Source: a virus
Strand: one strand, 5' to 3'
Virus record (IMG/VR): IMGVR_UViG_3300024308_000021
Location: 69,467-125,585 of that record
Length of the DNA stretch: 56,119 bases
This document shows, piece by piece, positions 26,511 to 54,410 of this stretch. The notes under the pieces were generated by a model. The model was not told where the DNA came from and did not search any database. It was given only the letters and a program-made list of their open reading frames with translations. Position numbers and translations under genes: made by a program. How positions within the stretch are numbered: the stretch's first letter is position 1; every line of letters begins with the position of its first letter.

Positions 26511-26537
26511 TTCGAAAATACCTCAGACTTATATTAC
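26511..26537 (+). promoter_or_regulatory. Putative early promoter driving the RNAP-subunit operon
   Basis: TTCGAAAATACCT-N6-TATATTAC, an exact phiKZ early core. Aligns without gaps to 54741-54767. Confidence 0.7.
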
Positions 26538-27648: not shown

Positions 27649-29271
27649 GTGATCGACGAGAATCTATTTGATTTCATCTTCGAGAGTCAACCCAAGTTCA
27701 ACCCAGTATTGGCGAAAGGTATTGCGACAACGGAGCTGCGTGCACCTGAGTTGCTGATCGATCGGACGTGGCGCTGTGCGGCACGTCTTTTCCCGCCAGG
27801 ATTGACCTACGAGGGGTACGAGATCTGTACTCCTCAGGAAGAACTCTTCGAACTCACTCGACGGTCAGGTAAGCAAGCTTACGAGCTTGCTCACTCTGAT
27901 GTGTATCTGGTTAAGTTCAACTTCCACCTGGATGGTAAGTTTCTGATCTCTCGCGGGCAGTACATGCCCGCACCAGACGAAGCGAACGCCATCACACTGC
28001 GAGGATCCAAGTTTACGCTGTCACCAGTCCTCGCAGATCGCTGTCTGTCGGTTTCCAAGGATACTCTGTTTATCCCACTACTGCGTGATCGTCTGAGCTT
28101 CCTACAGCTCGTACACACGCTACTGGTGGATGGTCAACCTAAACAGGTATTCGTGGAGTACTCCCGGATCCACCACCACAAACAACCACCAGAAGTGAAA
28201 CGTTATCCAGGTAACGTGAACGCTTCTACTACACTCGTACATTATCTGTTGTGTATGTACGGGATGTCTGGACTGTTTGCATTAGCCGGAGCAGTTCCTA
28301 TTCTGATTCCAGAAGGAGCTGATGACACTCCTTACCGAGCCGACCACGTTATCGTGGCTTCCAACGGTTGGAGTGACTTGGGGAATCCTTCCCGTCTGCG
28401 TCCACGCGGTGTACGGAATCGGGATTGGCAACCTCCGAAGTTCCGTCTGGCTATCCGTAAGGAAGAGTGGTCTACTACAGTAGAGTCCTTTGCAGCTGGA
28501 TTCTTCTACGTGTGTGACGTGTTCTCCGATCGCATACTGGAATGTGACCTCGAAGACACGCACTTGTGGCGGGTACTGCTGGGGATTGCTATCTTCGGTA
28601 ACTCCGTGTCCGAAGGTAAGCTCTACGAAGACGTAGTAGCTCACCTGAGTTCTCTGGAGGAGTACATCGATGAGATTGCTCGAGAAGATCTCTCAGCTGA
28701 TCGTATCATGGTTTCTTCAGCGTTTGAGTTGTTTGTTTACGTTATTGAAAACATGACGAGCATGGTTGTGTCTACCGACGTTACTAACCTGGAAGGTAAA
28801 CGTCTCGTGACCTGGAAGTACGTGCTGTTCGGATTGATCACAGCTATCTTTAAGTTTGCGTATTCACTGCGTAGTAAGAATCGTAAGCTTTCCGAAAGGG
28901 ATCTGATTACTCGTTTCAACCGAGGGATCACTCCTGAGCTGATCATGCGTATCAACAGTATCACTGGGATTGTTTCCAGTATCTCCTCCCCAGGAGATTC
29001 CATGGTACTGAAATACACTTCCACTGTAATACCACAGTCTTCAGCATCCACGTCTAATCGTGGTAAGTCTGCGGAACTGTCTTTGGATGACCCTACACTG
29101 CGTCCCAACGCTACAGCGCTGTCCGTAGGTAGTTACCTAAACTTACCTAAGAGTTTACCATCACCACTGTCTAAGGCGAATATGTACGGCTTGTTAGGCC
29201 GTAACGGAGAAATCCTGATCCGCGAATCCGATCGGGAATTCCTGGAAAACGTAGACGCCGATCTAATCTAA
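27649..29271 (+). CDS. DNA-directed RNA polymerase beta-like subunit, N-terminal part (non-virion RNAP, phiKZ gp123-like)
   Basis: 540 aa with PKFNP.LA.G, GLTY.GY..CTP.E, SDVYLVKF.F and LRGS.F..SPVL.D motifs, two genes after the capsid gene. Split RNAP subunits are established for this family. Confidence 0.8.
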   Translation: MIDENLFDFIFESQPKFNPVLAKGIATTELRAPELLIDRTWRCAARLFPPGLTYEGYEICTPQEELFELTRRSGKQAYELAHSDVYLVKFNFHLDGKFLISRGQYMPAPDEANAITLRGSKFTLSPVLADRCLSVSKDTLFIPLLRDRLSFLQLVHTLLVDGQPKQVFVEYSRIHHHKQPPEVKRYPGNVNASTTLVHYLLCMYGMSGLFALAGAVPILIPEGADDTPYRADHVIVASNGWSDLGNPSRLRPRGVRNRDWQPPKFRLAIRKEEWSTTVESFAAGFFYVCDVFSDRILECDLEDTHLWRVLLGIAIFGNSVSEGKLYEDVVAHLSSLEEYIDEIAREDLSADRIMVSSAFELFVYVIENMTSMVVSTDVTNLEGKRLVTWKYVLFGLITAIFKFAYSLRSKNRKLSERDLITRFNRGITPELIMRINSITGIVSSISSPGDSMVLKYTSTVIPQSSASTSNRGKSAELSLDDPTLRPNATALSVGSYLNLPKSLPSPLSKANMYGLLGRNGEILIRESDREFLENVDADLI

Positions 29272-29290: not shown

Positions 29291-31537
29291 ATGCATCAAG
29301 TTAACACAACTTACTGGCGTCAAGATCCCCTGAACTGTTCAGAGAACTGCTACCCCCTGCCGAATTACCCGCAGGACATCCGGGACTCTCAACCGACCGT
29401 GGAGCGCCTCTTGCGCGCGTACATTCAGAATGAGTCTGGCAAGAACCCCGTACGTGCTAAAACTTACAACGTATTGTCAGATGGCAATTATTCCAGCACC
29501 ATGTGGCAGCAAACCGTAGTATTCGCAGGACAACTCCTGCGTTTCTACTTGAACACACTGGGAAACCAAGTCGATCGCAATGCACTGGCGCAGCGTGCTG
29601 CTAAAGATGCATCGGACTTCATGACTCTCAAGGTCTTCGAAGGATCGCCGGAGTACTGTAACCCGAACTGCCCTCCGGCCATCGCACAAGGCTTTGCTGC
29701 GTTTAAGAACTACATCGGTCAAATCCTCAACCAGATGCAGCAGTCTCAGTGGGGCGGTGGTCAGCAGTCCTCCTGGGGGCAGCAACAGTCGAATGCTTGG
29801 GGTAGCCAACAACCCAAACAAGACTCTGTACTGAGCATGTTCCAGGGAACCGGTGCAACAGCATCAGAAGCTCTGTTCCGTCGTCAGGACGAGTCTGGTG
29901 TAGCATCCAGCGGCAACGCTATGATGGATGCTATCGCCGAGCGGGATCGTTTGCTGGATGAAGCGGAAGCTCGCCGTAAGGAAGCCGAAGCGAAGAAGAG
30001 TCGTGAGATCTTCGGGTCTGGTCTGGACTACGATCAGTTCTCTGGCGGTCCCGACGGCTACAACACCGGAGCTGCGGATACTGGTCACGGATTCTCCGAC
30101 CACTTCCAACCCAGCCAGAGCTCCACTCATCCCGGAGCGCCTGATCTGGATTGGTTGTCTGGTGGTAGCGGTACTACCACCACTACCAGCGAGCAATTCC
30201 CTGACACCACTTACGTACACGACCCCGAAACCGTCGAGATCGAAGACGCAGTACTGGTCGAAGAGTGGGTTCAGACTCCCGTGGGCGATGACGTCACCCG
30301 AGCTATCCACCCAGCGTGGGATCTCAGTATGGGTAAACCTCCGTATCTGCCGTATGTACACGCAGATACTCCTGTACCGAATCCGAAACTGCCTGTACCG
30401 CTGGCTCCTGCTTTCTGCATGGGAATCCGCGTTGCGCACAACATCTACACCCAAGTCGTTCTGGACGGCTGGATCTATTCTGCTAAGGAACTCCACGAGA
30501 TGGACGAAACCAAACATCAACTCCGTTACGACCTCCGCCCGCGTCAGGAACCCGTAGGACGCGTCGTACCGATTTACGAACTGCAACAAGACGACACTGT
30601 AGTAGACCAGGACTTCGTAACCGAAGCTCCGGTCAAACTCGAACAAATCGTCGTAGGTCTGGAGATCGACTCTGCTGCGAACTCCGTGATGAATACCTAC
30701 AACGTAGTAGGCTCCAATCGCCCAGCGCATTTCACCTACATGAACTCCCGTGCGGTTCAAGTAGACCAGCGCTACAACATCGAAGAACTCCTCGGGAACT
30801 TCGTGTGGACTGGTAAACACGCTAACGCGGATCTGTCTGTACTGGCGCATGGTCTCAAAGGACTTCAGGTTACTTCCGAGTACCTGTACGGTCTGCTGAA
30901 CACCTTCGCTACCCAGGCTATCAACCGTGTGCTGCGTTACGAGCTCAACACCATTGCTCGCGTAGAGAGCTTCGCTGACGACTACTCAGAACTCCTGGAG
31001 GTACTGCGTAAGAAATACGGCGACTCCATCCTGCCTGCTCTGGCGCGTTGTGCACCACTCGTAGCGCGTAGCGTAGCGTGTGTCTGCCCGCCTCAGTACG
31101 AAGACCGTCTGTTCCTGACCACAGTAACTCCGTTTACTGCCATGGCCTCGGGCTTCGTGTCTACTCCGAAAGGCGTGGACTACTGCGGTGAAGAAGAGTT
31201 TACTCGTCTGCAAACTGAAATTGGCGATCCCGATACTCCCATCGGTAATGCTTGCAGTTACTTCGTAGGTATGGTACGTCTGAACTACATGGCGTGTGTA
31301 CCTTGGACTGTAGCTGAGATGGGTCTGGGTTCCCTGAAAGCAGGTGAGCGTTTGCTGTTTGCATCCACCAACGAATACCATGCTTACTTCGAGTCTGTAC
31401 TGCAAGAAGCAGAAGCCGGTGCTCCTGTGTCTCGTGTGACTATCGTCACCCCGCAATTCGAAGCAATCGATCTGCATCGCAGTGAAGTAGGTACTCAAGG
31501 CGCTATCGTGGTGGAGCGTCGTAGCATTTTCGGTTAA
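29291..31537 (+). CDS. Large hypothetical protein with Q/S/WG low-complexity and acidic disordered middle region
   Basis: 748 aa, AGGAG RBS, strong codon bias. Contains QQSQWGGGQQSSWGQQQSNAWGSQQ. Confidence 0.85.
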   Translation: MHQVNTTYWRQDPLNCSENCYPLPNYPQDIRDSQPTVERLLRAYIQNESGKNPVRAKTYNVLSDGNYSSTMWQQTVVFAGQLLRFYLNTLGNQVDRNALAQRAAKDASDFMTLKVFEGSPEYCNPNCPPAIAQGFAAFKNYIGQILNQMQQSQWGGGQQSSWGQQQSNAWGSQQPKQDSVLSMFQGTGATASEALFRRQDESGVASSGNAMMDAIAERDRLLDEAEARRKEAEAKKSREIFGSGLDYDQFSGGPDGYNTGAADTGHGFSDHFQPSQSSTHPGAPDLDWLSGGSGTTTTTSEQFPDTTYVHDPETVEIEDAVLVEEWVQTPVGDDVTRAIHPAWDLSMGKPPYLPYVHADTPVPNPKLPVPLAPAFCMGIRVAHNIYTQVVLDGWIYSAKELHEMDETKHQLRYDLRPRQEPVGRVVPIYELQQDDTVVDQDFVTEAPVKLEQIVVGLEIDSAANSVMNTYNVVGSNRPAHFTYMNSRAVQVDQRYNIEELLGNFVWTGKHANADLSVLAHGLKGLQVTSEYLYGLLNTFATQAINRVLRYELNTIARVESFADDYSELLEVLRKKYGDSILPALARCAPLVARSVACVCPPQYEDRLFLTTVTPFTAMASGFVSTPKGVDYCGEEEFTRLQTEIGDPDTPIGNACSYFVGMVRLNYMACVPWTVAEMGLGSLKAGERLLFASTNEYHAYFESVLQEAEAGAPVSRVTIVTPQFEAIDLHRSEVGTQGAIVVERRSIFG

Positions 31538-31570
31538 CTGGCGCGTCCTACTCCAGTTGTAACTAAAGAC

Positions 31571-31596
31571 GAGGGAGGTCGCGCTCCCTCTCTTTT
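31571..31596 (+). terminator. Intrinsic terminator
   Basis: GAGGGAG-GTCGCG-CTCCCTC followed by TCTTTT. Confidence 0.8.
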
Positions 31597-31598
31597 AT

Positions 31599-32029
31599 GC
31601 CCTTTTCTACGGCTGTGTGTTTTAGGACACGTGGCTGTTGTAGGAGTGTTACTGTCTGCGGCCAGCTAAGGGTCGCACCGCAGATTACTTAGTATCTAGT
31701 TGTCCCTGGAACCAGAGCATTCTCCTTATCCCCCACTGGGAGAGGATCGATAGAGCAGTTTGTACCGGAATTAACTGGCAACCGCTGTTCTCAAGTTAAG
31801 TGCGTAGAAGGCAAGAAAGGACAAACGACTAGCAGTAACACTACCAAGTCTACTAGATTACAGTAGGCGCATTCCTTGATCGATTAGATCAAGGGGATTA
31901 CATGGGGTAATCCAGGAGACGTCATCACTCCAGAACTGACTGGCTTTAACTAACGGAGGTATTGCATATGCAACTCGAAATGGTTTCGGGCCTCTAAGAC
32001 TTCGCCACTGGTGGAGTCTTTTTTTTTTT
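31599..32029 (+). ncRNA. Candidate large structured non-coding RNA (~430 nt), family not recognised
   Basis: No credible ORF. About ten helices found by eye, including a 10-bp long-range pair (31645-31654 with 31833-31842). G-U pairs favour the + strand. TATG at 31596-31599 and a terminator at 31996-32029. Confidence 0.75.
31996..32029 (+). terminator. Intrinsic terminator closing the candidate ncRNA
   Basis: AAGACTTCGCC-ACT-GGTGGAGTCTT (two G-U pairs) running into 11 T. Confidence 0.85.
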
Positions 32030-32042
32030 GGCTCAAAGGGAC

Positions 32043-32066
32043 AAAAGAGGAGGCCGAAGCCCCCTC
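32043..32066 (-). terminator. Intrinsic terminator of the portal gene
   Basis: On the minus strand GAGGGGGC-TTCG-GCCTCCTC followed by TTTT. Confidence 0.8.
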
Positions 32067-32073
32067 CCCTAGA

Positions 32074-34839
32074 TTACTCTTCTTCAGTATCCTTCTCATC
32101 GGTAGGAGGTTCATCAGTCTCCTTAGGTTCCTTATCCTCATCCTCTGCTGTAGCGTCAGCGTCCTCCTCGGTTTCTGGAGGAGCATCTGCATCAGCATCG
32201 GCATCCTGGTCGATGCTATCGAAACCACCAGCCTCGTCTTCAGTACCGCCACCAGTTTCAGTGTCTGTACCGTCTGTCTCGTCCTGACCCATCGCATCCA
32301 TCTTGGCTTCGAACTTCATACCACGCTTGCTACATTCAGTAAACAGATCTTGCAGGGTCTTCTGAGTAGAGTCCAGCAACTCCTTCACATCCACAACCAT
32401 ACCACTACCAGCTGTGTCTTGGTTACCCATCAACTCCTGGAGCTCAGGCATGATAGAGTTAGCCACCATGAACTTACGTACGAAATAAGCTTTGACGTGT
32501 TGGAAGAAAGCTTCGATAGCACTGGATTCACGAGAATCAATCAGACCAGAGATCATATCCGCAGAGATCCACTGACGCAGACCTACGTCCAGACCTTCGA
32601 TGTACTCGTCCATCTGCATCTTCTGCATCTCGAACTTCTTAGTATCAGGAGCAGGAAGCGAGATACTAAAACGCTTCACCAACTCGTCAATACAAGACTC
32701 GATCAGCAGCTCAGACTTCGAACGCTTCTCTTCGTTAGCGCGAGTAGCGATGTCCAGATAGTCCATGATTTTAACCAGGTCTTTCTTAGACATCTCCTTG
32801 AGTTCTTCCACCACAATCTCCTGGAGTTCTTCCAGTAGCTGTCCAGAGTTCCAGATGTATTTGTGCATGTGGTCGTTGAACAGATTCGTAGTAGGTTCCT
32901 GGTAAGCCAGGATACGTTTAGCAAACAGCAGATTACTAGACGTGATAGACTGAGCGAACTCCACGTTACCCAGAGAATCCACCAGCTCAGGAGGTAAACC
33001 GAATCCCAAGAAGTGTTCGCGCTTCTTACGCTCTTCCAGATCTTCGAAAGGTTGAGTGTTAGGAATAGTGCGTTCTTCCTGCGTTACAGAAGTCTCTGGG
33101 TAGTTCGGGTTACCGGTCGCTACAATACTCACACCAGCGTTTTGCAAGTAACTCACGAGGTCGTATGCGTTGTCTACAGACAGCGGCATCGACTGACTGC
33201 GAGTACGAGCGAGCTCGTGTCTGATGACTTGCATGGTTTGGTCTGGGTTAGCATCGTCCGGATCCAGAGCAACGTTTACCTGAGTAGAACCCACAGCACT
33301 GCGCACAGCACGCATGATGTTAGCAAACTGCAACGTAGCACGCTGAGTAGCCAGGATCTTGGTTTTGTCCAGCAGACTACGACCAGTCCCGTCTTCGTTG
33401 TAGTCGTATGCGAAATACGTCATGAGTTCCACAGGAACCATCAACAACTGAGTGCCTTTGTTAGCCAGGTGTCGAGCTAGCATGATCTCGTAAGCGTTGT
33501 TGTTAGCAGCGATCTCGAGGTTAGCGTTCACACGACCATTCTTCAGACGAGACAGGATGTCTTGCTGTACCACAGACTGAGCAGTAGCACGCAGCTCCAT
33601 CAGTTCAGTGGAGCTAGTACGCTGACGGTTACCATACACACCACGGTTAGCGATATCTGCCAGTGTGTTGTTCAGGTCTTGACCAGGAGCTTGGGTCTGA
33701 GTGTACTCGAGTTGACGGTAGTAGTCAGAACCCTTAGCACGGTACAACGGAGAACCGTATTCGTCCAGTAGAATCAGATGGTAGATCGGGCACTCAGGCT
33801 TACCAGCCGGGTGGATGTTGATCACACACTCAGGAGGCAACCGCATTACCAGAGGATGTCCGACAGGTTTACGTGAGTAACGATCCATCGGGTGGAGCTG
33901 GATAGTGTAACCTGGACTACTACGATCACGAGCCATCTCGCCACGTATAGCTGCCATCTCTTGGTCACCGAGCTCCAGAGCCTCAGTGTTCCATTCCACG
34001 TTAGAACGAGCACGTCTACCGTAAGCGTTAGACATAGCCCGCTTACGCATCTTGGCCTGACCTTCCTCGAGAGCCGCTGGGTATTTCAGAACGTTCACGT
34101 TGTCAGAGAAAGTCAAACTCAAATACTCGGACTTAGCTTCTTCAGCGGAGAGTAAAGGAGCCAACCCACCGAGCTGCTCTGCTGAAAACACAGGAGCTGT
34201 TTTACGCTCAACCAGTTTGCGTTTACCGTCCTTATTCTCCAGAACGAAATCAGAAGGTCCGAGGAGACCGATACTCGGAGCAGTGCCGGAGTTAGGGTCG
34301 TAGTAGTCCTCACCGAACTCCTCCAGAGACATCGACCCCCCGTAGTTGATCACAGAGTCCAGGCCAGTCTCCGGTACTACCAGCAGAGGATACGAACCTG
34401 TGTTGAACAACGCATCTTCTATCGCGGTGGATATAAAAGAACGGATCGGATAAACGTTTGTGAAGAAATCGGATAGGTGTTTAGACACCCGACTTACCAG
34501 GTTAGTGGGAAAATCGTCAAATGGTAGCTTGTAGTAGATGTCCCTGGAGACCATATCCTGTGGCGACAGAATAGACGACACCAACAACTGCGCTGCCATC
34601 TCGATATCCGGAAGCATCTCACGCAGGTTTTGAGCTGTGGTGATGTCACTACTCAACCGCTTGGCTTGGTTTTGGAGAATCAGACTGTTGGGGTTACGGC
34701 CGTTGGTGCCATTAACCCCCGTCAGGTTCATTGTACGCGCTTCTACGAGCTTGGTAGCGATAGCCGCTGCCTGGTTATTCAGGAATGGTAAACGTTGTCC
34801 AGCGAGAGCTGGAGTGCGTGTAGGCTTATTGGTAGACAT
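32074..34839 (-). CDS. Portal protein (phiKZ gp129-like)
   Basis: About 921 aa, start refined to ATG 34839 (AAGGAG RBS). Motifs LPDIE.A...LVSSILSP.D, GHPLVM.LP.E.VI, G.G.SLL and FGLPPELVD; acidic C-terminal tail. Confidence 0.8.
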   Translation of the reverse strand: MSTNKPTRTPALAGQRLPFLNNQAAAIATKLVEARTMNLTGVNGTNGRNPNSLILQNQAKRLSSDITTAQNLREMLPDIEMAAQLLVSSILSPQDMVSRDIYYKLPFDDFPTNLVSRVSKHLSDFFTNVYPIRSFISTAIEDALFNTGSYPLLVVPETGLDSVINYGGSMSLEEFGEDYYDPNSGTAPSIGLLGPSDFVLENKDGKRKLVERKTAPVFSAEQLGGLAPLLSAEEAKSEYLSLTFSDNVNVLKYPAALEEGQAKMRKRAMSNAYGRRARSNVEWNTEALELGDQEMAAIRGEMARDRSSPGYTIQLHPMDRYSRKPVGHPLVMRLPPECVINIHPAGKPECPIYHLILLDEYGSPLYRAKGSDYYRQLEYTQTQAPGQDLNNTLADIANRGVYGNRQRTSSTELMELRATAQSVVQQDILSRLKNGRVNANLEIAANNNAYEIMLARHLANKGTQLLMVPVELMTYFAYDYNEDGTGRSLLDKTKILATQRATLQFANIMRAVRSAVGSTQVNVALDPDDANPDQTMQVIRHELARTRSQSMPLSVDNAYDLVSYLQNAGVSIVATGNPNYPETSVTQEERTIPNTQPFEDLEERKKREHFLGFGLPPELVDSLGNVEFAQSITSSNLLFAKRILAYQEPTTNLFNDHMHKYIWNSGQLLEELQEIVVEELKEMSKKDLVKIMDYLDIATRANEEKRSKSELLIESCIDELVKRFSISLPAPDTKKFEMQKMQMDEYIEGLDVGLRQWISADMISGLIDSRESSAIEAFFQHVKAYFVRKFMVANSIMPELQELMGNQDTAGSGMVVDVKELLDSTQKTLQDLFTECSKRGMKFEAKMDAMGQDETDGTDTETGGGTEDEAGGFDSIDQDADADADAPPETEEDADATAEDEDKEPKETDEPPTDEKDTEEE

Positions 34840-53945: not shown

Positions 53946-54410
53946 ATGTCATACGCAAAACCAATGAGTGAGCAGGAAGTTGAATACATGCGGGGTCTAG
54001 AACCCCGCGATCTACTGACAGCTTCTATCCAAGACTGTCGTATCCAGTCTGATCCCCGTCAAGCCCACAAGCATTCCCGTAAAGTAGATCTGTTTATCCG
54101 GGCAATCCAACCTACTGGGGAAGTGAAACTCTACACCTCTCCTAAAGAGTGTATTGAGCTGCTGGAGCTTGCGGCTAAAGCGTTCGAGGGAGGAGACTAC
54201 CGTAACCTTACCGACAAACGCCAAACCTCTTACGATCGCACCTACGCTCGTAAGAAGACCTGCAAAACCCGTACTACTATTCTGGAGTTCGACACCTACC
54301 GTCAGGTCGGTGAGTTAAAGAAAACAGATGTGCAGTATTTCGTGAGTATTACCACCCCGACCGTATTCGATGACCCAGGTATCGAACTCGGCCCTGAAGA
54401 CCTCAAGTAA
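53946..54410 (+). CDS. Hypothetical protein
   Basis: 154 aa, AGGAG RBS. Confidence 0.75.
   Translation: MSYAKPMSEQEVEYMRGLEPRDLLTASIQDCRIQSDPRQAHKHSRKVDLFIRAIQPTGEVKLYTSPKECIELLELAAKAFEGGDYRNLTDKRQTSYDRTYARKKTCKTRTTILEFDTYRQVGELKKTDVQYFVSITTPTVFDDPGIELGPEDLK

Follow-up and report, generated by a model that had tools for sequence, protein, structure and literature searches.

Large structured non-coding RNAs are, to our knowledge, uncommon, and a function is known for only a minority of their classes. CsrB, RsmY and RsmZ are trans-acting RNAs that mimic ribosome-binding regions by means of many single-stranded GGA motifs. ROOL and GOLLD are large, many-helix RNAs encoded by phages; their function is not known, although GOLLD, whose 3′ part is conserved and 5′ part variable, was pulled down with ribosomes (PMC12286853, in part). 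OLE is an ornate chromosomal RNA of ~600 nt, found mostly in Bacillota and served by Oap partner proteins, with an internal helix resembling a Shine-Dalgarno/anti-Shine-Dalgarno duplex; bS21 binds at this duplex mimic (PMC12054373, in part). Nucleus-forming phages have their own non-coding transcripts. Those described for phiKZ and 201phi2-1 are ~70-250 nt long with two stem-loops, and some are processed from untranslated regions (PMC8545117, PMC10914365, PMC11512511, each in part). A 180-nt phiKZ RNA runs partly with 30S fractions (PMC8545117, in part). Finally, phi29 prohead RNA, restricted to phi29-like phages and needed there for packaging, holds its structure at low sequence identity (PMC5066667, in part).

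The RNA that we describe here is predicted from the genome of an uncultured, nucleus-forming jumbo phage. The contig (125.6 kb, ~45% complete) encodes chimallin, a tubulin-like protein, a phiKZ-type capsid protein and RNA polymerase subunits among the 131 ORFs examined. Cultured relatives are distant, the best portal match being 32.6% (among 287 records). By the window we mean the whole 56,119-nt stretch of DNA that was analysed. The gene-free stretch considered here, or part of it, recurs in 20 of 24 runs among the matches listed, from nine studies of mainly wastewater and the subsurface; one of these runs may be the source of the sequence.

How does this RNA compare? We propose that it, too, mimics a ribosome-binding region, but unlike CsrB, RsmY and RsmZ its GGA motifs are barely above chance and paired; a CsrB-type decoy was rejected on GGA counts of 10 and 9 against 6.8 and 6.6 expected, with 0 and 1 fully unpaired. 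It resembles ROOL and GOLLD in its many helices, but there is no sequence or model match, its ~430 nt compare with 659 nt for a ROOL example and often >800 nt (PMC12286853, in part), it lies away from tRNA islands, and it is known so far from one clade of nucleus-forming phages. Like OLE it would contain an internal Shine-Dalgarno/anti-Shine-Dalgarno-like helix, but it has no Rfam match, and here a start codon follows the signal at normal spacing. The two RNAs of this group known from Grad-seq, in contrast, carry no strong Shine-Dalgarno signal (PMC8545117, PMC10914365 and PMC11512511, each in part), and the phiKZ genome has no match to our covariance models R1 and R3. Prohead RNA shares the habit of keeping structure while losing sequence, but the RNA is missing from most relatives of our phage, and interlocking loops were not seen at the mapped positions of the two sequences compared.

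The gap and its fold

A first-pass annotation had placed a highly structured RNA in the largest non-coding gap of the window, bounded by terminators. Its sequence and coordinates hold, and the gap (31538-32073, 536 nt) is the largest; two apparently larger ones were an artefact of greedy ORF picking inside a 717-aa ORF. Upstream lies a phiKZ gp124-like gene of 748 aa (29291-31537, + strand; phrog_15010, E 2.3e-9, and phiKZ gene order), whose protein matched no Pfam family and which is a possible source of read-through. Downstream, and convergent to the RNA, is the portal gene (32074-34836, - strand), the phiKZ gp129 orthologue (PDB 11ed_J, portal gp36, E 3.9e-86; 9xpe, PHIKZ129). Terminator-like hairpins are indeed present on each side. 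The element itself ends in an intrinsic terminator with an 11-bp stem and a long U run (31996-32029, + strand), and the portal gene has its own terminator on the - strand, near 32043-32071.

All ten nested helices that had been read by eye can form where they were placed, and RNAfold recovered helices 1, 2, 3 and 5-10 together with the inner half of helix 4. Repeated GATTAC units, another feature considered, were dropped, the third copy not being kept in place. The suggested comparison of folding energy with shuffled sequences gave a modest result: with the terminator z was -2.84 on the + strand and -1.78 on the - strand, without it -2.39 and -1.89, and 2 of 18 coding control windows folded equally well. 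Folding energy alone is not decisive; the proof of structure is comparative.

Known families offered no home for the element. Against Rfam 15, whose models include tmRNA, RNase P, SRP, 6S, group I and II introns, riboswitches, ROOL, GOLLD, OLE and HEARO, the best E around it was 0.36, and nothing reached the gathering score in the window or in the diverged relative described below (L008). The absence of tmRNA hallmarks was borne out by ARAGORN, which finds no tmRNA in either sequence; a tmRNA-like tag was ruled out on the same ground and on linker codons that vary between lineages. A hammerhead-like core was rejected on inspection by eye. Group I introns were set aside as well: the element is intergenic and has no RF00028 match, while the genome's own intron scores 45.3 bits. 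So were retron, DRT and OMEGA-type RNAs, the flanks being the gp124-like and portal genes and no reverse transcriptase or RNA-guided nuclease occurring among the 131 ORFs of the ~45% genome.

These searches bear on a broader alternative, namely that the element is a ribozyme, what is left of a self-splicing or reverse-transcribed element, or else a structure of single-stranded DNA, for example an origin. In its favour, a long-range helix, a hairpin and a possible pseudoknot follow one another in an order loosely like that of a group I core, single-stranded DNA also allows G-T pairs, and the junction accepts insertions. Yet Rfam reports no intron or ribozyme at the element, although it does detect the true group I intron of this genome (E 1.9e-9). 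None of the 131 ORFs of this partial genome belongs to a reverse transcriptase, Cas or TnpB family, and the element is single-copy and ended exactly by an intrinsic terminator. We regard this alternative as very unlikely.

The rest of the genome has features of its own. The group I intron, which has no gene of its own, lies at G000:C1 ~64656-64984 on the - strand (L034:857-1185; RF00028, 45.3 bits, E 1.9e-9). An 893-aa ORF (L038:601-3282; G000:C1:54601-57282) contains a LAGLIDADG-like domain and is probably an intein or homing endonuclease insertion. ARAGORN calls a tRNA-Val at 53982-54074 of the window (- strand), inside a 154-aa ORF of the opposite strand; the call is probably spurious, and Rfam did not confirm it at gathering score. 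After the tubulin-like gene, outside the window, an ORF-poor stretch (G000:C1:29411-29895; L032:400-900) folds strongly (z -5.14) and ends in a terminator, with no match to Rfam or to model R3. Also outside it, a 794-nt ORF-free gap (G000:C1:20730-21523; L033) has AT-rich and purine-rich tracts and several hairpins; it is origin-like in appearance only and has no Rfam match. Within the window, positions 28001-28397, inside an RNA polymerase subunit gene (27649-29271), fold with z -5.2 against 30 shuffles.

Compensatory change in a diverged relative

The comparative evidence comes from L008, a metagenome locus of a diverged relative whose portal is 82% identical over the matched part. Its gap is 545 nt long and in the same place. 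Four-fold sites of the window and L008 are 46-55% alike. Across the junction, identity is 92% over 31535-98, falls to 54% over 31599-31893 (shuffled control 50%, maximum 53%) and returns to 86% over 31894-31995. L008 nevertheless folds independently into the same order of helices, with z -4.70 on the RNA strand and -2.86 on the other. When 97 pairs were compared, in registers partly set by hand and anchored on shared letters, 59 were unchanged, 6 had changed on one side and still paired, 30 were double changes and 2 were broken; all 30 double changes fall within the 5′ domain. A covariance model made from the window core only finds the L008 core, on the matching strand only, at 34.2 bits and E 3.8e-9 (as a control, its own reverse strand scored 20.9). 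In the model-made alignment, which leans toward the model, 26 of 56 pairs are double-changed against 2-5 in slid controls. A position-tolerant shuffle test separated only weakly, the observed 57 of 62 pairs exceeding the null maximum, 56, by one pair (0/500).

The claim that mismatches resolve as G-U on the + strand was upheld: in paired columns G-U outnumbers A-C by 18 to 1, so + is the selected strand. Within the 5′ domain, mapped positions are alike at 54 of 72 unpaired and 75 of 141 paired sites. Close variants of the window add at least 13 substitutions outside hairpin P8, of which ten are unpaired, two turn G-U into a standard pair and one breaks a pair. Contigs from two more runs show the L008-type replacement of the 5′ domain, and another run shows its ends. 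All the deep covariation comes from a single sequence pair, the window and L008. Taken with the fold and the model match, it makes a structured + strand RNA under selection very probable. The stretch is likely to be a real structured RNA of an undescribed family, ~400-430 nt long, with predicted ends and transcription.

In the window this RNA would occupy 31599-32029 of the + strand (~430 nt including the terminator). It opens with P1, a 13-bp hairpin (31609-31638) in which 6 of 13 pairs are double-changed and 1 is broken; in close variants one of its G-U pairs becomes G-C and another breaks. The core domain (31643-31845) is closed by P2 (31645-54/31833-42, with two G-C pairs beyond a conserved bulged A), where 7 of 10 pairs are double-changed and none is broken. 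At its inner end P2 meets P3, a small hairpin and P4 in a four-way junction, which has no linkers in L008. P3 (31655-31684) has double changes in 4 of 6 pairs, while the interrupted P4 (31696-705/31819-32), which closes an inner junction with P5 and P6, has 5 in 10 and no broken pair. Two invariant parts of the 5′ domain lie here, an 11-nt motif at 31716-26 and the 5-bp P5 (31719-23/31743-47), both identical in L008 (31716-31747 overall). The motif is an anti-Shine-Dalgarno-like pyrimidine run, unchanged inside the region of 54% identity, which could pair alternatively with 31914-19 (P10) or 31955-59. P6, with its inner stem (31752-31791), shows 3 double and 2 single-side changes in 6 pairs. 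A conserved, mostly unpaired segment (31793-31810; 13 of 18 letters alike, ungapped) is a candidate for a tertiary contact.

Beyond the core come hairpins P7 (31848-68; 2 double, 1 single and 1 broken among 7 pairs) and P8 (31874-94; 3 of 7 double), P8 having in close variants a second allele with two paired double changes. P9 and P10 (31895-31931) are nearly invariant, with 37 of 38 letters alike over 31894-31931; their structure is predicted, with no covariation. Neither of the two pseudoknots proposed earlier is established. The first, 31665-70/31688-93, has no counterpart in L008, where the matching bases are occupied by other helices. The second, 31799-805/31867-73, re-forms five pairs in L008, two of them double changes in a hand-set register, and variant X8 breaks its middle pair.

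The 86% identity at the 3′ end may have a second source. Recombination may have contributed to it: a window-like variant carries an L008-like P8 allele, and in the upstream gene four-fold-site identity, 46% at first, climbs to 64% as the gene's end is approached.

The junction, its distribution and transcription

The first-pass annotation had also looked to the neighbouring genes for a function, proposing a packaging RNA like that of phi29 on the strength of the adjoining portal gene, or else a partner for the upstream 748-aa protein. Relatives that keep the gene order tell against both. Their junction is a bare terminator gap of 46-63 nt (L007, L004, L043) or 150-220 nt long (L039, L041), or it carries unrelated inserted genes (L002, L003, L006, L012, L040); in phiKZ it is rearranged. 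Orthologues of the 748-aa protein occur without the RNA, and so do orthologues of the portal. The portal neighbourhood is a variable insertion site, and adjacency to the portal is therefore no argument for packaging; the RNA has the look of an accessory confined to one clade, at a site prone to insertions. It is true that pRNAs, too, hold structure at very low sequence identity (PMC5066667, in part). But relatives with an orthologous portal lack the RNA at the junction and, within the reach of the models, elsewhere, and pRNA is known only from phi29-like phages in the same partial source. A search for interlocking loops, as loop-loop helices of at least 5 bp with double changes, found none among the mapped positions of the two sequences. 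A role in packaging or assembly is, in our view, highly improbable.

In Xanthomonas phage Xoo-sp14 a 277-nt gap follows the gp124-like gene (L002:12042-12318, - strand), with z -5.0 including two terminator-like hairpins. It has no match to models R1-R3, and may be a different structured RNA, unrelated to ours, that occupies this junction in a cultured phage.

The element is narrowly distributed. Against 50,697 phage records, blastn of the gap returned 25-nt terminator matches only, in 16 of them. Protein-guided scans found no locus in viral contigs with single proteins, 2 loci there with an alignment, none in genome contigs and 17 in metagenome contigs; of these 17, L008 carries the element in diverged and L009 in identical form. 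DNA patterns gave 0, 0 and 4 matches in viral contigs, the four sharing only the pattern itself, and 5 in genome contigs, all in open frames and without model support. Searches with models R1-R3 brought up no homologue in 12 other records of related phages, within the limits of two-sequence models that may miss distant forms. Whole-record scans covered 12 records and the phage's own genome for R1, 5 for R2, and 9 and its own for R3, the L008, L012 and L024 records being left out. R1 gave two weak matches (E 0.16 and 0.26), unfiltered scans of 6-7 loci a best E of 0.027, and R1 and R3 show the RNA in single copy in its own genome. Its motifs are absent from seven supplementary files of a survey of viral structured RNAs (PMC10690425, in part); that search did not extend to files 1 and 2, which may hold the candidate sequences. 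We found no published description of the RNA in a literature search that took in little of the subscription literature.

At its 5′ boundary the RNA is preceded by two hairpins on the + strand. H0a (31535-31559), at the stop codon of the upstream gene, has all 7 of its 7 pairs unchanged in L008. H0b (31571-31599) is terminator-like, with a short U run and the tail TATG (TATC in L008). Their loops are predicted to be able to pair in both sequences, with one G-U change. At 92%, the hairpin pair (31535-98) is more alike between the window and L008 than the flanking genes are, and it could be part of the RNA or play a role in its processing.

The tail is where the TATG at 31596-99 had been described as the established core of the phiKZ late promoter. 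The letters are there, but TATG is a common terminator tail and is TATC in L008, so that a late promoter here is at most a candidate. A hairpin with a TTATG tail makes up 8 of the 68 terminator-like hairpins of the genome, and at least seven mapped phiKZ terminators have one (T051, T057, T059, T060, T070, T071 and T076); T057 has no start listed beside it in the part of the supplement seen (PMC10914365). In phiKZ, TATG is necessary, not sufficient, for a late start (PMC4666361, in part). The tails look lineage-specific, TTATG being common in the window phage and phiKZ and TTATC in L007 and L008. As for early transcription, a motif of the early-type consensus stands at 26530, heading the upstream operon, and none was found near the RNA. 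Read-through of that operon followed by processing is as likely as a late start of the RNA's own. The phiKZ supplement rows call no + strand start or stop between 121 and 130 kb, so the silence of phiKZ at the gp124 junction is uninformative. A metatranscriptome (X20) yielded four low-depth contigs, two of L008 type touching the element and none on the portal end. One of the L008-type contigs runs from the upstream gene to ~74 letters past H0b. Strand and level cannot be read from the X20 contigs and DNA may be present, so that they were not counted as evidence of RNA; runs X12 and X17 are probably DNA.

The 3′ start signal and its meaning

The conserved 3′ module (31955-31994, + strand) looks like a place where translation should begin. 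It has a consensus Shine-Dalgarno (31955-60) with an ATG seven bases on, and pairing with the anti-Shine-Dalgarno motif is predicted at about -11 kcal/mol. The start codon (31968-70) sits in a palindromic hairpin (31962-73), which is followed by a second hairpin (31974-90), and P11 (31956-59/31991-94) is predicted to fold the Shine-Dalgarno against a pyrimidine run, with pair probabilities for the signal of 0.55 and 0.31. Counting both strands, the 125.6-kb genome contains GGAGGT-N5-9-ATG five times, or 0.009 per 430 nt; recognition of the signal here was post hoc. The window, L008 and close variants all retain it, and the loose end of a third lineage keeps the purine run. At the start codon a single kind of change was seen, ATG to GTG in a variant lineage; two contigs show it, probably from one event, and a neutral loop change would fit too. 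The module has zero double changes. What follows the start codon is not conserved as a peptide: the micro-ORF has 9 codons in the window (31968-31997), and the L008 frame has no stop before the terminator. A dual-function sRNA or leader peptide was rejected on this comparison, no small ORF being conserved.

We favour action on translation over packaging because the conserved 3′ end has a ribosome-binding signal without a conserved protein; the translation machinery is most likely the better candidate for a target. Our preferred reading, to which we give roughly one chance in three, is a stable, trans-acting non-coding RNA of ~400-430 nt that mimics a translation start site. Transcription of the RNA would start at the junction (31599), or the RNA would arise by read-through of the upstream operon and trimming. 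Its 5′ domain would fold compactly and serve as a scaffold, with a partner bound by the conserved junction bases. The 3′ module would present a helix of the Shine-Dalgarno/anti-Shine-Dalgarno kind, or else the signal in opened form; with this it would capture 30S subunits, or a protein able to recognise such sites (bS21-like, or a translational repressor), and thereby tune translation during infection. The pyrimidine motif at 31716-26 might swap partners with the 3′ purine runs and so couple the two domains. OLE with bS21, GOLLD with ribosomes and the 180-nt phiKZ RNA in 30S fractions offer precedents. Against the reading, the signal is predicted to be paired, and no bS21 gene was found in the 45%-complete genome. 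The start signal could also be the leftover of a lost inserted gene, relatives having genes at this junction.

That last thought leads to a cis-acting leader or riboswitch-like switch, in which a ligand or protein sensed by the 5′ domain gates the start signal of the micro-ORF, or once gated that of a gene since lost. The conserved junction bases resemble a ligand pocket, the invariant pyrimidine motif has three alternative purine-run partners in both sequences, and relatives express inserted genes at the junction. What such a switch lacks is a conserved target (9 codons here, an unstopped frame in L008), and a strong terminator lies within 30 nt downstream. Nor would 30 compensated pairs outlast their gene, unless both lineages had lost it recently. 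We think such a switch quite unlikely.

The start signal would be incidental if the RNA were a decoy or scaffold for a protein outside initiation, such as a host defence protein, a nuclease, or a nuclear-shell or RNA polymerase factor. The protein decoy of the first-pass annotation is close to our start-site reading. The short, sequence-invariant helices P5, P9 and P10 do resemble protein-binding sites, and the narrow distribution suits a host-specific accessory function, but no partner gene was identified among the 131 ORFs, and the RNA is not CsrB-like (0-1 unpaired GGA) and has no repeated units. A decoy of this sort is an unlikely explanation.

The palindrome at 31962-73 invites a third idea, a ROOL/GOLLD-like RNA that assembles through self-complementary loops into an RNA-only oligomer or cage. 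The 12-nt palindrome is conserved, its predicted dimer (-16.6 kcal/mol) is far more stable than its hairpin (-2.4 kcal/mol), and its loop variant still self-pairs through G-U. The multi-junction fold, with a variable 5′ and a conserved 3′ part, recalls GOLLD (PMC12286853, in part). The RNA is, however, below the size of ROOL and GOLLD, without an Rfam match and without an adjoining tRNA cluster (the one tRNA call in the window is 22 kb away), and a covarying loop-loop pair was not found. We would call this somewhat unlikely.

The start-site reading has a bolder form, which we hold to be doubtful: a new class of large phage RNA in which a ~300-nt sensor domain switches an internal anti-Shine-Dalgarno strand between partners, uncovering a start site without a peptide at which 30S subunits are caught. 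If true, it would be an RNA-only trap for host ribosomes, used in trans by nucleus-forming phages.

We rate the RNA as a new family within a known kind, the large, ornate phage RNAs, a claim limited by its narrow distribution. At ~430 nt, rich in junctions and with 30 compensated pairs, it stands apart from the short two-hairpin RNAs described for nucleus-forming phages in the sources as far as seen. It can be produced in vitro, so that its fold, oligomer state and binding to 30S and bS21 are accessible without the phage. Nucleus-forming phages separate transcription from translation, and for this reason an RNA that mimics a start site would, if our reading is true, be a new way for such phages to steer the ribosomes of their hosts.
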